DNA of 54,132 bases, filler included, from Catajapyx aquilonaris (taxonomy: Eukaryota): NCBI GenBank assembly GCA_000934665.2. It is 2 parts of 2 records of this genome, joined end to end, with 100 filler letters (N's around TTAATTAATTAA, not from the genome) between each part and the next. Parts side by side here need not be neighbours in the genome. Positions count along the whole stretch, not along the records: positions 27,053 to 54,132 come from JYFJ02005132.1; 1 more part is not named here. One strand, 5' to 3'. The notes under the pieces are model-generated. The model did not search any database, was not told the origin of the DNA, and saw only the letters and a list, made by a program, of their open reading frames with translations. The position numbers were made by a program, and so were the translations under genes. Each line of letters begins with the position of its first letter. Position 1 is the first letter of the stretch. Positions 26,531 to 51,400 of this stretch are shown piece after piece.

Positions 26531-26952
26531 CAGGGTGGTTGTGAAGTAACTGCCTTTGGAAATGTGTAATAAAATTGTCAAATATTGCTAGATTTTCATG
26601 AAACAAGTTTTATTCTGTACCTTACAATGGGAGAATTTAAACTCCCGCCAGTATGCAACGCCACGGTCCCAGGTGGCAGCAGCAGTCCCGATACCAGTAA
26701 AAATGGCGAAGCTGGCGTCCCGTTTTGAAGTCGGGGGTCGGTGGTTAAAGTGCAGAGATGGTGGCGATACATACACGGACCTCGTGCCACAGTTCACCCG
26801 AGGACCATAAAGAACTGCCATTCGAAGCTGGTGAGCACGGGATCCGTGATGGACAGCCATAGGAGTGGTCGTCCGTCGACATCGAGGACAGAGGAAAACG
26901 TGGCACCGCGATGGTTCGCCCATAGTGGCTTTATGGTCCTGGGGTGAACTGT
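26531..26952 (+). mobile_element. Tc1/mariner-superfamily DNA transposon remnant (left end plus degenerate transposase N-terminus), truncated by the assembly gap
   Basis: Terminus TA|CAGGGTGG at 26529-26538. A frameshifted peptide MAKLASRFEV... / TIKNCHSKLVSTGSVMDSHRSGRPSTSRTEENVA resembles the HTH linker 'TGSV.D..RSGRP...RTEEN' of mariner-type (DUF4817-like) transposases. Confidence 0.75.
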
Positions 26953-31582: not shown

Positions 31583-33505
31583 ATGGCGGCGCTCTGGACG
31601 CGAGCTGTGCTTACGAAAGGAGGAGGAGGAGGAGGGGCGGCCCGTGTGCTGGCCCGCAGGGGGAAGTCGGATCAGGTTAGTTGGTATAGAGAACAAGGGG
31701 GTTCTCAATGATAGCTGCAGTGGTGCCACACCGGTTGGCACGATAGTCGGCTGGTAAACAAGCGATGCACTTATTTCCAACGCTACCGAATGGGAGATAA
31801 CAAAATGGCAACGCGCGCAACATGTACTGTTGCCATTTATGATAAATGCTGTATAGTGGACACCGGTCGGCTGGTAAAAACGATGCACTTATTTCCAACG
31901 CTACGGTTGGGAGGCAACAAAATGTCAACGCGCGCAACATGTACTGTTGCCATTTATGATAAGTGCTGTATAGTGGACACCGGTTGGCACGAAAGTCGGG
32001 TGGTAAAAGCGATGCACTTATTTCCAACGCTACGGTTGGAAGTTGGAAGAGAACAAAATGGCAATGCGCGCGACATGTACAGTACTGTTCGCATTATCTA
32101 TGATAAATGCTGTATAGTGGACACCGGTTGGCACGATTTTCGGCTGGTAAAAGCGGTGCACTTATTTCCAACGCTACGGTTGGAGGAGAACAAAATGTCA
32201 ACATGTATTTAGGCATTTTTCAATGATAGCTGGTTGACTCTATCAAAGGGGGTGTGCTACAACACTTGTTCTGGAAATAAGTGCTGCACTTATTTCCAAC
32301 GCTACGGTTGGGGGAAGGGGGGAACAAAATGGCGGACTTTTGCGATGTTGCGCAATCGAGTTCGCGCAGATAGTACGGAGGAGGAATTTCGCGACGTTGC
32401 CAAGGTTCTGGAACGAACGTCAGAGGCTAAAGTTGTTGCCACAGCAGTGGAGCTGCGCGATTCTGGGTGCGCACGCGATTGCGCTCGTAAATGTTTTTAA
32501 AAAAACCAAGCACGCGATGGTGATTCGAGTACACTTTTTCTCATCGGACAGCCTGGGAAATGAGGCTGAAAACCCCCGACACGATTCTAAATTGACAGCA
32601 ATGACGTTGACTCATTTTCCATTGCCAAATTTGACCTTGGCGGATACAGTGTGCCCAGAACAACCGGAAGTGGCTGGTCACCAGAAGTTTTGATCATGTT
32701 GAATCCGAATCCGAAAACCGTTTGTTGTTCTCTCATGCGGTTTAGCCTCTGATACCTGTCCACAGACGGACAGACTTTTTTTTAGATGAGGAAAAGCCTG
32801 AAATTAATCTGTAGTATTGACATAATTATTTGCAGGTGTCGCAAGCTGCGTCGGACCAGGTTGATCAAGACAACGAGGATGTCCTGCCTCCGCATGCCAG
32901 GATTGAAGGAAGGATCGATTCATTTAAAGCAAGAGGGTACGCTCCTCTGTAATGCGTTACACCTGCGGTTCAATGATTGTAATTATTTCTGTAGGTTTCT
33001 CCGAGCTATAAGGTCGTACACTCCGCCGCCTCAGGCCAAAGAGAAGGTGGTGCAGATTTACGAAAAGGTGTGTGGACGGAAGGCGGCAGCTGATTCTCGG
33101 TTGGATGACGTGAGGACCAAGTTCAAGGTGCTGGACTCATGCGCGGCTGAGTTTGGTGGCCATTCGGTTCCAAACTCGCAGCTGCACCTTGTGGACACTG
33201 TTGCGGAACTGGCGAGGTTTTATGCGATGGAGGTGGTCACTAATTCACCGCTGGATTCGATGAAGAAGATGGAACTACCCAAGAATCTTCATATACAGTA
33301 TGAATATCAGCGGTTCCATCCAGGTGAGCTGCTGACAAATGTTACAATAATTACAGTACAGCACAATTAATTTCGTTACGTTGTTTCAGATACCGACACG
33401 CTCTTCGGCGGCATCACCGCCTTTCCGAAATCATCCACCATCGTCACAGGCGTCAAAGCTAAAAAGAAGTACCGTGGCTTCAAAGCAAAGACGTCATGGC
33501 CTTAA
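31583..33505 (+). CDS. mRpL50: Mitochondrial ribosomal protein L50 (mL50), ~212 aa
   Basis: Exons 31583-31675 (MAALWTRAVLTK...ARVLARRGKSDQ, transit-peptide-like), 32836-32936, 32995-33323 and 33390-33505; 639 nt in frame. Arthropod mL50-type motifs: SFKARGFLR..RSYTPP, GHSVPNSQLH, LPKNLHIQYEYQRFHPDTDTLFGGITAFPKSSTIVTG. Confidence 0.88.
31729..32335. repeat. Tandem repeat of ~117-144-bp units (4 copies plus a partial) in mRpL50 intron 1
   Basis: Units start at ~31729, 31861, 31978 and 32122, with a partial at ~32285. Shared core TGCACTTATTTCCAACGCTAC...AACAAAATG(G/T)C. Confidence 0.9.
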
Positions 33506-33655: not shown

Positions 33656-44510
<10,855 letters not shown>

Positions 44511-44760: not shown

Positions 44761-45289
44761 ACTGGAATGTGTTAACTTCAGATAAATAATTCATTTTAAT
44801 GCTGCATTTTGGCCATATTTTTGTTAAATATTAGGTGTTAATTAATAGTTTCATTGCATAGTTCGCGAAATTTGAACTTGTCGGTTGATGGCATAAGGCG
44901 GGTAAATTTAAATTATGTTAATAAATTGTCATGCAAATTGGGACGAAAAATACAGAGACAATTAAATGAAGTGATAACATCTTTATTAAAAACAATCTCA
45001 ACATTTCAGTATCTGCACTTTGAATTTATGTTTGCACAGTACCGGAAATTAACTTCTACACGACGTGATGGGTATAAAATAATTATAAAATGATGGTGTG
45101 CAAATACAACTGTACTTAAAATATTAATCTATTTTCATCACCATTTCCTGCCAACTTCTTTTATCCAATACACTTTTGGGCAACCTTCCATTACTCATAT
45201 TTACAGCTCACTTCGTCACTTTAAAAAAAAAGTGCAGATGTAACACCTTGTCTTCATCGTATAAATAAAATTAAATGTAATCCATCTTT

Positions 45290-46846
45290 TCATGTGCAAC
45301 CACACTTTTTGACTACCATGTTTGCGTACTTTTTGAGTATGACGTTGAAATCTTCGTCAAAGTAGAGCACTGAAACGGAGGCAAGCTTGGTGGGCGTACA
45401 TACAGCAGGTCCATACATGGTGGGATACATCAAGTGGAACAGGGTCTGAGCTATTGCGTGGTTGGTCGCATTGAAATGCGCATGCAATGGGAACGTGCAG
45501 ACTCCGGAGCAGAAGTAGGCCGTGTAGCCCTCAGGAGCGATGATCCAGTCCTCCCAGTTCAAGTCATGAAAGCTCACATACAGCATGCGACGCTGGCACA
45601 GCTTCTCTTGCTCCACCGTTATGTACGCTGGAATGCAAAATACCATAATATGTAATTCACCATCATATTCATCACGGCTTTTCCCAAAAAACTGGGGTGA
45701 CAGCGGATAATGCTACCCTCCTACATGAGGCATGCCAGGCATTATTCTATATGTATCATACTTATGTAAGGATTGTCCACCGGTGGGAGTTCAGCATCCT
45801 CTTCCCTCCGACTCCGACTCCTGGGCTCATCTTCCTGGGCCACCGTCCCCCGACTCCCCTGGTTCTGGAAGTAGCACACCAGGAAAGGCTTGTCGCTGAT
45901 GCCCACACTCTCCGGTGCAATGGTCTCGCCAGCCGACTCCTGCTTCTCAACGGACAGCACCAGGCCCCAGTTGACTTGTGGAAAAGCCAGCCACTCCCGC
46001 ACCGCTTTGGTCATATCAAACTGGAGCCATCCCGCATGATGCCCACTCACATTCAGATGGCCGATGGGTTGGAACACAACATCACTGGAAGAGGGGTTCA
46101 TATATGTTAAAGACAATCCTATAAGTAAAATAGCCCATTTTAAGGAGCTACTAAGAGCTATACTAATAAGGTGAACACTAACTCAACAGTCCATCCCGGC
46201 ACCATCTGCTGGACCTCCAGACGCAGTGGTTCGGTGAAATTGGACCCATCTTTGTACATCCTTAGCTCTGCTTTCAGAAGCTCATATCCTGGAGGAATTT
46301 GACTGGTGTCAAACCACAGCAGCCCCTCTTTGCCCTCAGGCCCAAATTCACCTAAACAAAAGAGAAAAATGAGTCAGACAATGCCCCCAAAAATAACCAG
46401 CCTCATTAGACCCCCCATTTTGCATTACCTTGACCTTTGTCCCTGAAGCTGATGACCAAACTGCTCTTCTTCAGCACCTCCTCTTCATCCCTGGAGCGAC
46501 TGGAATGGTGGTGGTGGTCAGAGTGTCGCTCATACTCATGCTCATCTTCGTCCTTCATGAACCGGTAGACGTCCATGAGGTAGTTGGACGCAGGGTCATC
46601 CTTGTCCCCTCTGCTAGACGCCCCTTGACCCATTGCTTTTGGTCTTGGACGCCTCTGGATCCCAAGCACCTTCAGCATCTCCCTCTGAAGCCTCCTGAAT
46701 TCCCGGGTGCTGCTGACCTTCCCGACCTCCGTCTGACCTTTCCCATTATCCACGTATATCCCCGATCGACGGCTCCGTCGACGTCCCCCACTGGTCAACA
46801 CCACAAAAACCAGAAGGAGAGACGCGAAGAAGGGTCCAAACAGCAT
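45290..46846 (-). CDS. TGF-beta family ligand, gbb/60A (BMP5-8)-like, divergent, ~415 aa
   Basis: Exons 46429-46846, 46183-46351, 45762-46084 and 45290-45627 (1248 nt in frame). Signal peptide; gbb-type [12 protein letters not shown]; prodomain motifs KAELRMYK and GWLQFDMT; furin site RSRSRR; mature domain [25 protein letters not shown]...NATNHAI...SVLYFD...[17 protein letters not shown]. Confidence 0.92.
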
Positions 46847-48450: not shown

Positions 48451-51400
48451 TCAATATCCTGCCGCGTCTCCCTGCTTGCGGAAGTCTGCGTTTGCATAAA
48501 CCCAATCCGAATCTGTCGAGACTCCGTTGATTATTGAAGCCCAGTGGTCAAACAGCTCCATTTTGTGGCCCAGCTTCCGAAGCCCTTGTAAATATTTCTG
48601 AAGCAGAAAAGAGGGGAGGGGGGAAAAAAACACACTCATTGGTGATCATGGCCGAATGGAGCAAGTAATTACCTCATTGAATCCTTCTTCATACTGAATA
48701 GTCATTGGAATGAGTTGGTGGTGCAATCGACGAGCATCAATCGCTTGCTTCAGGTCATCATGAAACCATAAGTACCTCATCGCCATCTGCGGAAAAATAC
48801 CGTATTAATTAGCTTACATCCGTGTTATGCATATTTATGTAATTAATGTTACATGGAATCCAAATAACTTACAAAAGCAGTAGTGGAAGTGATTTTGGAT
48901 CCTCCAGCAGCTCCGACAACTAGCTTTGGTCTGCCATCCTTACCGACAAATATCGCAGGACACATGGAAGACAGCGGCCTCTTTCCTGGTTCTATGTAAT
49001 TTGCAGCTGTGGGAGGAAGGTTGAAGTAATTCGTCATGTTTGGGGCTGAGAAGTCGTCCATCTCGTCATTCAGGATTATGCCAGTGTGTCTCGAACGAAG
49101 CATCGATCCGTAACTGAAACCGAGTGAATCATCAGCAATATGACAGCATTTTCTGAAAAAATTGCTACTCACTACAAATTAACAGTAGACGTAGCGGACA
49201 CAGCGTTTCCATCTTTATCTATGACGGACATGTGAGACGTCCCATGTTCCTCAGGCTGCTGGTAATTCTCCACCCCGTAATGCTCCGGATCACTGAAGGT
49301 CCTGGTGTCGACTATGGACTCTCTGATAATGTCCGCATATTTGGGCGAAGTCAGATTGTCCATTAGTCCGGCAACACTCACAAACTCGGCGTCCCCAAAC
49401 TCCATCCGTCGGGCGTACGTGAATTTAAAAGCCTCCACAATCCGGTGGTATGTCAAGATAGCCTTTTCCTCCGTGTCCATATCAGACGGAGACATCCCGT
49501 ACCCCTTCAGTATATTGAAAATAAATGCCATCAAAGTCCCGCTTCCAGACAGCGGAGACGTATATAAGGAGAGATCGCCGTGAAGCTGTGCCGTGATTGG
49601 CTCCTGCCATTTCACTCTAGAATCAGGAAATAAAATGGATGAGCACTGGTTTTTTAGCGTTACTCTAAGGCCAGGTTTCACCATGGTTTTAATAACGAAT
49701 GGCCATAGCAACCATTGTTGGCACCATTCAAAAGTAAGGCTATTTCCAGATGAAACTGGGATTTGTATAACCTGCTTTGTGAAACCCGGCCTAAAATCCG
49801 CAACTCACTTGTAATTGGCCAGATCCTCCTTCGTAACGATGCTCCCCATTTCCTGAAGGTCTTCAAGCAGCAAGTTGGCCAGACTTCCATTGTATATGGC
49901 ATCTCCGCCTTCCAGTGCCACCACGTCAAGAGTCGTGGCCAGGTCCATCCTCGTAACCATGTCACCCTCTTTCCATACGGTGCCAGTCTTCGGATTGACC
50001 AGGATTTCCTTCATGGTAGGCGAGGACATGATGGCCTCCTTCTTCACGTTCATGGCATTGGCTGCGTGGGGAGTCACCTTGAAACCCCTGCGACACAGCT
50101 GAGACGTCGGGTACACCACCTAGAAAGCATCATCGTGAATGAAGCAGCCCCAGGGAAGGTTGCGGACTAACACACCTGACTCCATGGCAGCTTTCCGTAT
50201 CGCTGATGCGCCTCCCAGTAGCCCCGTAGCTCCCCCGGCACAGCTATAGACAACGGGCCATCCTGCGCGAGGCTTGAATTTCCTTCGTACATGTCCCTGT
50301 ATGCCGCAGATGGTGCTGTCTCTCTGGCGTCCAATGCTACAGATAGGTTGCGGTCTCGGAGGTAAATGATCATCAGAAAGCCGCCGCCAATTCCCATACT
50401 CTGGGAAACCACCACACCCAAGCACAGCATCGTGCCGACCGCTGCATCCACCGCATTACCACCATCCTTCATCAGATTGCTGAAAGAACAGGCTGTCAAA
50501 TTTGCATCCACAGTTTGAGCCAAGTAATCCGCACCTGCCGATTTCTGAACAAGGCTGTGCGTCTGAGCTGACGGCAGCATGCTTAAACCTATGGAGGGTC
50601 GAAGGTGAAGGGTGGTACCTCGGAGTTTCACTGACAAAGAGGGCTAGTCCGATAATCAGTCCCACAAGAAGCAGAGTCAGCAGCACGCCCACTATTATCA
50701 GCCGTTTCTTGCTAATTGTTACACTGGAAAAAGATGAACAGTAAAGTCACGTAATATGTTAAGCTACGCACAGAGTACATATATCTAACTAGCAAGGCAA
50801 CTTGTGAAACAACGCTCCCAAAATATGTAAATACAGTTGCAGCTTTTACAATAAGCATGTGCCTGTTGACATCACAACATAACGTACAACGTTCATTCAT
50901 TCATTACACTCACGGCATATTCCCAAGATGGGGTTACCAGCAATTACCAGGCCTGTATGTATAATCATATCAACCTATCCATTATATCCTTTGCGTGGCC
51001 TGAACAGTCACTGAAGGATTCATTAAACTGGTCATACGAGATGGTCACGTGGATTGCACCTGGTCATCGCTGGTAACCCCATCTTGGGAATATGCCATGA
51101 GTGTAATGAATGAATGAATGAACATAACGTACAACAATAAAGCAAAAAAACATAAGCGACCCTACGTCACTTCCAAGCAGGTCGTACATGTAACGTTAAA
51201 AACCATGGTCTATGTACTCCTACATGTAATGGTTAATCCTGATTTTCCTGGTCAAAACATACTTCAGTTTAGGGATCATACGCCTTCTGGACTTCCTCGG
51301 ATTCTTCCTCCGGACGGCAATGGAATCCAGGAGGAGATTTCGAGTTGCGCTAACTCCTTCCTCAATATCCATAGAATCTGAATCAGTGTCTTCCATCATG

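Follow-up and report, generated by a model that had tools for sequence, protein, structure and literature searches.

The window analysed in this work (the whole stretch of 54,132 nucleotides, filler included) contained a four-exon gene on the minus strand (46846..45290) which, upon exon joining and translation, encoded a 415-residue proprotein of the BMP5-8/Gbb class. The downstream neighbour was a gene for a Hobbit/BLTP2 lipid-transfer protein (33829-43537, minus strand), and the upstream neighbour a gamma-glutamyltranspeptidase gene (48849-50643, minus strand); an ORF for a mitochondrial ribosomal protein L50-like product was located at 32786-33370 on the plus strand. The joined exons formed a 1248-nt coding sequence with an intact open reading frame, and introns 1, 2 and 3 (77, 98 and 134 nt respectively) all showed GT..AG borders.

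Exon 1 (46429..46846, minus strand) began with the ATG at 46846-46844 and encoded a hydrophobic N-terminus that by eye resembled a signal peptide, followed by an Arg-rich stretch and the first part of the prodomain (Pfam TGFb_propeptide, E 1e-13). Exon 2 (46183..46351, minus strand; E 3.8e-06 for the same profile) encoded a further part of the prodomain, and exon 3 (45762..46084, minus strand; E 8.3e-13) the prodomain end, the furin site and the first residues of the mature peptide. The cystine-knot TGF-beta domain was encoded by exon 4 (45290..45627, minus strand; Pfam TGF_beta, E 1.7e-32), which ended in the stop codon TGA (45292-45290). The layout was that of a TGF-beta proprotein: TGFb_propeptide (PF00688) in the three upstream exons, an RXXR site and an N-terminal signal sequence (by eye). 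The predicted proprotein-convertase RXXR site, R-S-R-S-R-R (residues 284-289 of the spliced translation; 45805..45822, minus strand), aligned with the basic cleavage region of relatives, and a cut at this position would yield a mature peptide of 126 residues. The query also retained N-A-T, the glycosylation sequon conserved in BMP ligands (45464..45472, minus strand); its N52, A53 and T54 were invariant in 120 of the 120 matches listed. The Arg-rich segment of exon 1, R-R-R-S-R-R, immediately followed the putative signal peptide (46760-46800).

Five public runs from two studies matched the stretch, and four of them (X1, X2, X4 and X5) were compared as contigs, a form in which rare variants are lost. 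X1, X2 and X4 were DNA runs from one sample, possibly the source of the assembly, while X5 belonged to another study. The DNA contigs of X1, X2 and X4 over 45223-45690 left 45401-45403, the codon at the inter-chain Cys position, unchanged. In X5, a 692-nt contig comprised 45065-45627 and 45762-45890 with 0 differences, skipping the intron, and a 393-nt contig joined 45888-46084, 46183-46349 and 46427-46455. The three X5 joints corresponded exactly to the modelled introns (45627>45762 in contig 25; 46084/46183 and 46351/46429 in contig 27, the latter appearing as 46349>46427 with the cut at +2, which backs the exon 1 donor 46429|GT) and were absent from the DNA runs. As the X5 contigs were spliced, they were taken as transcript-derived, the kind of run not being on record. 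Since DNA and spliced contigs agreed and all three introns were removed as modelled, the gene is real and intact, it is transcribed, and its transcript carries the Val codon. An error of sequencing or assembly at the Cys position can be dismissed for practical purposes: GTA lies three bases away from TGY, and contigs from three DNA runs match the X5 contig from the separate study. The first-pass annotation had called a base-call error unlikely and had pointed to reads and RNA as the check; with the same Val codon in the contigs of four runs from two studies, such an error is excluded.

Three allelic variants were found in the coding sequence of the DNA sample: a synonymous one in the last Cys codon (45296), an Arg to Trp change in the prodomain at a CpG (45999) and an in-frame 9-nt insertion in exon 1 (near 46790-46799), the last in one DNA contig of run X4. 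A short interspersed repeat was located in intron 3 (45654-45710); the depth of DNA contigs reached 288-395 near 45670 as against 21-38 in the adjacent bins, approximately tenfold, and many contigs from other places ended there in loose sequence on both sides.

The exon 4 translation matched TGF_beta (PF00019) over profile positions 2-104 of 104 and contained the six knot Cys at canonical spacing (mature residues 25, 54, 58, 91, 123 and 125, falling in KLC, YFC, GVC, AVC and CGC). The closest PDB chain in a phmmer search was BMP6 (2r53_A, E 5.1e-45), query residues 7-110 being aligned with chain residues 12-115 without gaps. The A-V-C-T-P-T of the query lay over the P-C-C-A-P-T of BMP6, which places Val (codon GTA, 45401..45403, minus strand; mature residue 90) at the first Cys of the pair, next to knot Cys 91; this codon differed from TGT and TGC at all three bases. 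The seventh, inter-chain Cys, which gives the disulfide-linked dimer, was thus absent and replaced by Val. The column was C-C in 120 of the 120 listed BMP5-8 matches (longer proteins), and the difference is therefore real and not alignment noise. A six-Cys mature domain with Val (GTA) at the first Cys and unchanged spacing had been described from the sequence beforehand, and the ungapped BMP6 alignment confirmed it; the open reading frame, likewise described as intact, ran through 415 codons over four exons whose splice sites are used.

After BMP6, the PDB matches were BMP7 (1.4e-43), BMP2 and GDF5 (about 4e-34 each), and sequence comparison showed the query to be closer to BMP5/6/7/8 and 60A than to BMP2/4/Dpp or the remaining subfamilies. 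The best database identities among the matches listed were 62-69%, to BMP5/BMP7-like proteins. Pfam, PDB matches, database identities and trees agreed on the BMP5-8/Gbb class, to which the ligand had been assigned in the first-pass annotation. The query retained the NAT sequon and the RXXR site as well as every one of the six knot Cys, and it conformed to alignment A1 at 16 of 16 invariant columns; compared with BMP5-8 proteins from other phyla, its mature domain showed 64-69% identity. Searches for a close orthologue returned no match above 69% identity among longer or near-length proteins; among 1.84 billion cluster representatives (3179 matches, E <=1e-3) identity did not exceed 67%, and the ESM Atlas matches were generic BMP7/TGF-beta clusters only. 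An AlphaFold2 model of the mature-domain monomer, built from a 60-row alignment, was weak (mean pLDDT 59.1, pTM 0.37); the order of secondary-structure elements in this low-confidence monomer fitted the family, with two finger strand pairs and a helix at 53-66.

The region surrounding the lost Cys was considerably altered. The loop V-P-K-P-C-C-A, invariant in 120 of the 120 listed matches, read Y-G-P-A-V-C-T in the query, with Tyr (45413..45415, minus strand; position 71 of the 111-residue exon 4 product) four residues before the lost Cys, where canonical ligands have Val. Other near-invariant positions were also changed (M51F, V59A, V63F, R101A and the terminal H111T), including V59 and V63 of the wrist helix, which were A and F in the query. 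The 25 residues preceding the first knot Cys had a net charge of -5, compared with a median of +2 in the representatives, of which 1 of 136 was equally acidic. This acidic N-terminal arm of the mature peptide, which maps to 45763-45804 together with 45598-45627, may lead to weak heparan sulfate or matrix binding; the pI predicted for the mature peptide was 5.2. The divergence as a whole (long branch, altered loop, wrist helix and acidic arm) fits a changed function and mere tolerance equally well.

The frequency of the Cys loss was surveyed in the best 150 of the 3179 matches to 50%-identity cluster representatives. The column was C-C in 127 of these 150 and X-C in 23, the replacing residue being R, S, K, G, L, N, Q or Y; X-C was also present in 3 of 52 near-length matches (60 were returned, the remaining 8 being already among the representatives). 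The named X-C sequences came from nematodes (Soboliphyme, Ascaris, Plectus and Mesorhabditis), a tardigrade (Paramacrobiotus), mites (Panonychus and Brevipalpus), a barnacle (Pollicipes), a bivalve (Tegillarca BMP7) and Meara stichopi (Bmp5-8). Parsimony placed between 5 and 11 state changes on the trees, at least 4 of them forced by the starred, well-supported branches, so invertebrates have repeatedly lost the “obligatory” disulfide that links the two chains of BMP5-8 ligands. Two unnamed representatives were observed in arthropod surroundings: P0358 (G-C) was sister to a C-C copepod cluster, P0250, with Calanus and Neocalanus members (97/99), and P0376 (N-C) fell inside a starred clade with Drosophila and Sitodiplosis 60A. 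From their sequences and positions, both are apparently further independent Cys losses in arthropod Gbb-like genes.

Comparable losses are in print. C. elegans TIG-2 (BMP-like) and TIG-3 are described as lacking the inter-chain Cys, with Lys in its place, and were modelled as dimers (Ciccarelli et al. 2024, PMC11210861). The BMP7 proteins of Pinctada, Crassostrea and Tegillarca are likewise reported to lack it, with non-covalent dimers given as possible (Yan et al. 2014, PMC4264221), and RNAi of mollusc BMP7 is reported there to produce a shell phenotype. The titles listed in a literature search included no arthropod report of a Cys-less Gbb, though one may exist in print. The first-pass annotation had given vertebrate ligands alone (GDF3, GDF9, BMP15 and Lefty) as precedent, which was overstated, the same loss being frequent within invertebrate BMP5-8 proteins, as seen in the 23 of 150 representatives and as described for TIG-2 (PMC11210861) and mollusc BMP7 (PMC4264221). 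What it took for convergence on an atypical mode is therefore a change that recurs in the subfamily. Judging from the representatives surveyed, invertebrate BMP5-8 ligands have lost this Cys time and again and probably tolerate its absence well, and the inter-chain Cys is no strict criterion of BMP5-8 membership. The loss in the query is a real but fairly ordinary variant and no unique invention; as it has already been described for TIG-2 and mollusc BMP7, the gene is a useful comparative data point that should not surprise a specialist. It contributes an arthropod case that is expressed and in which the loop surrounding the site is unusually remodelled.

In the phylogenetic analyses, the query fell within the BMP5-8 clade, separated from the outgroup, whose rows were unnamed and were assumed to be BMP2/4-like, with SH-aLRT values of 80 in the mature-domain tree, 91 in the quick full-length tree and 100/99 in the careful full-length tree. 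The mature-domain tree contained 133 rows (17 of 150 were dropped for having domains shorter than 98 residues); the query was found there in a poorly resolved BMP5-8 clade, on an end branch of 0.69 compared with a median of 0.2. In the careful full-length tree its end branch was 1.72 versus 0.79. The basal position within the BMP5-8 clade given by the quick full-length tree was dropped because an AU test revealed a better tree than the one on which the quick search had settled: holding the query with arthropod-plus-tardigrade rows raised lnL by 38.8 (p-AU 0.946).

The careful full-length tree, of 36 rows, grouped the query with Pollicipes P0266 and the unnamed P0328, both X-C (99/95). The same group was present in a tree made from the prodomain only, in which the trait column and the whole mature domain were left out (SH-aLRT 83), and addition of P0321 gave a four-member X-C group (SH-aLRT 92, with a warning that long branches meet). 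The barnacle grouping was not recovered in the mature-domain-only tree. Tyr at -4, common to the query, Pollicipes P0266, P0328 and P0299/P0321, was present in 4 of the 23 X-C representatives and in none of the 127 C-C ones. Forcing the query into a 12-row clade with insect 60A cost 10.7 lnL units (p-AU 0.018), with long branches in play; 4 rows of this “insect” clade were named, and the p value is optimistic because the clade was picked after the tree had been seen. The placement points, tentatively, to an ancient Cys-less lineage separate from insect gbb, and long-branch attraction may also explain the grouping.

These tree neighbours, a Pollicipes pollicipes “bone morphogenetic protein 7-like” protein (XP_037072067.1, P0266), P0328 and P0321/P0299, were the nearest to the query, which they resembled in being X-C, in having Tyr at -4, in prodomain motifs such as L-L-W-F-D and in a hydrophobic residue replacing the Glu of G-E-C (L in the barnacle pair, V in the query). 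They differed in a mature-domain identity of about 60%, in the residues replacing Cys (S, Q and S, compared with V in the query) and in keeping both P-K-P before the site and the basic cleavage region. Insect Gbb/60A proteins (Halyomorpha, Copidosoma, Drosophila and Sitodiplosis) had the BMP5-8 class, the proprotein layout and the phylum in common with the query, and the Copidosoma 60A-like protein showed the highest full-length identity to it (38%); all of them were C-C, whereas the query was more diverged, had the acidic N-terminal arm and was placed apart.

Outside the arthropods, TIG-2 was similar as a BMP-subfamily ligand with an intact cystine knot and a replaced residue before the knot Cys (Lys, as described in PMC11210861), the difference being that genetic data exist for TIG-2 and the query is known from sequence and transcripts. 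Nematode representatives were X-C at the same column (P0324 Ascaris, P0330 Plectus, P0355/P0380 Mesorhabditis and P0246 Soboliphyme) but with K, R or Y in place of the V of the query, and since nematodes formed a separate clade in the trees their loss was probably independent. The mollusc BMP7 proteins are BMP5-8 homologues with six Cys and proposed non-covalent dimers (as described in PMC4264221); Tegillarca BMP7 (P0314) was G-C at the column. They belonged to a lophotrochozoan clade, sister to the C-C Sinonovacula BMP7, and kept the canonical P-x-P loop before the site, which was lost in the query. Vertebrate GDF9, BMP15 and GDF3 lack the same Cys and are given as forming non-covalent homo- or heterodimers (as cited in PMC11210861) but belong to other subfamilies; the query being clearly BMP5-8 by sequence, this resemblance is a functional analogy only.

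Considering these data together, the locus is probably a functional, transcribed arthropod gene of the BMP5-8/Gbb(60A) class whose product would be a furin-cleaved BMP agonist, acting as a non-covalent homo- or heterodimer, with the Cys loss as a tolerated, recurrent change. By analogy with TIG-2, mollusc BMP7 and GDF9/BMP15, the signal peptide would be removed and the proprotein would dimerise in the secretory pathway, after which cleavage at R-S-R-S-R-R would release the cystine-knot ligand. With Val in the place of the inter-chain Cys, only non-covalent contacts would join the two subunits, whether in a homodimer or in a heterodimer formed with a further BMP (Dpp or Gbb, for example), and the ligand would signal via BMP type I/II receptors.

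The long branch, the many near-invariant positions changed, the failure to find an orthologue above 69% identity and the one non-synonymous CpG variant in the prodomain could also be read as signs of a decaying or neutrally evolving duplicate, that is, a nascent pseudogene which is still transcribed. This seems very improbable, given that the 415-codon frame is intact over four exons with canonical splice sites in use, that the core motifs persist along with the RXXR site, the sequon and all six Cys of the knot, that the mature domain still resembles the BMP5-8 proteins of other phyla to the extent given above, and that the observed indel variant is in frame. An alternative close to the idea of the first-pass annotation, which we consider possible but rather unlikely, is a neofunctionalised Gbb paralogue: an old pancrustacean duplicate with an acidic arm and a dimer interface remodelled at Tyr -4 and at the hydrophobic residue replacing the Glu of G-E-C, serving as obligate heterodimer partner or as modulator of Dpp/Gbb. 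The Cys-less barnacle grouping recovered by the full-length and prodomain-only trees, and again with P0321, argues in this direction, as do the presence of Tyr at -4 in all members of the group, the long branch, the acidic arm and the cost of placement with insect 60A, a result at odds with the species tree should the host be a hexapod. There is also a precedent in Nasonia Gbb2 and Drosophila Screw, described as fast-evolving Gbb paralogues serving dorsoventral patterning (PMC4218986). Nevertheless, tblastn with three BMP5-8 proteins found no second TGF-beta domain in the window (all other matches had E >=1), the meeting of long branches means that the grouping may be long-branch attraction, the mature-domain-only tree did not show it, and the test against the insect clade, of which only 4 rows were named, gave an optimistic p value. 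As for antagonism, Lefty-like antagonists differ in more than the inter-chain Cys.

An extended form of the paralogue proposal is conceivable, and we regard it as unlikely: an old pancrustacean lineage of Cys-less Gbb paralogues, common to barnacles and lost in insects and marked by the two interface residues, would have had its interface re-engineered for reversible subunit exchange, the product being an exchangeable Dpp/Gbb heterodimer partner and, given the acidic arm, a poorly matrix-bound, long-range form. Should the grouping with barnacles hold, the query would be part of a so far unrecognised lineage of arthropod ligands, one that would lend itself to studies of non-covalent dimerisation and heterodimer exchange.

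As regards the surroundings of the gene, one exon of the neighbouring Hobbit/BLTP2 gene had arthropod proteins as best matches (Cryptotermes 67%, Timema 65%, Diploptera 63%, ticks 57-59% and Penaeus 55%), in line with the arthropod origin stated for the gene in the first-pass annotation. No tandem repeats were found near the BMP5-8 gene. Elsewhere in the window, a run of N was observed near 26950, and the segment at about 31677-32212 contained ORFs on both strands whose peptides repeat internally, pointing to a tandem DNA repeat with a unit of approximately 100-150 nt.
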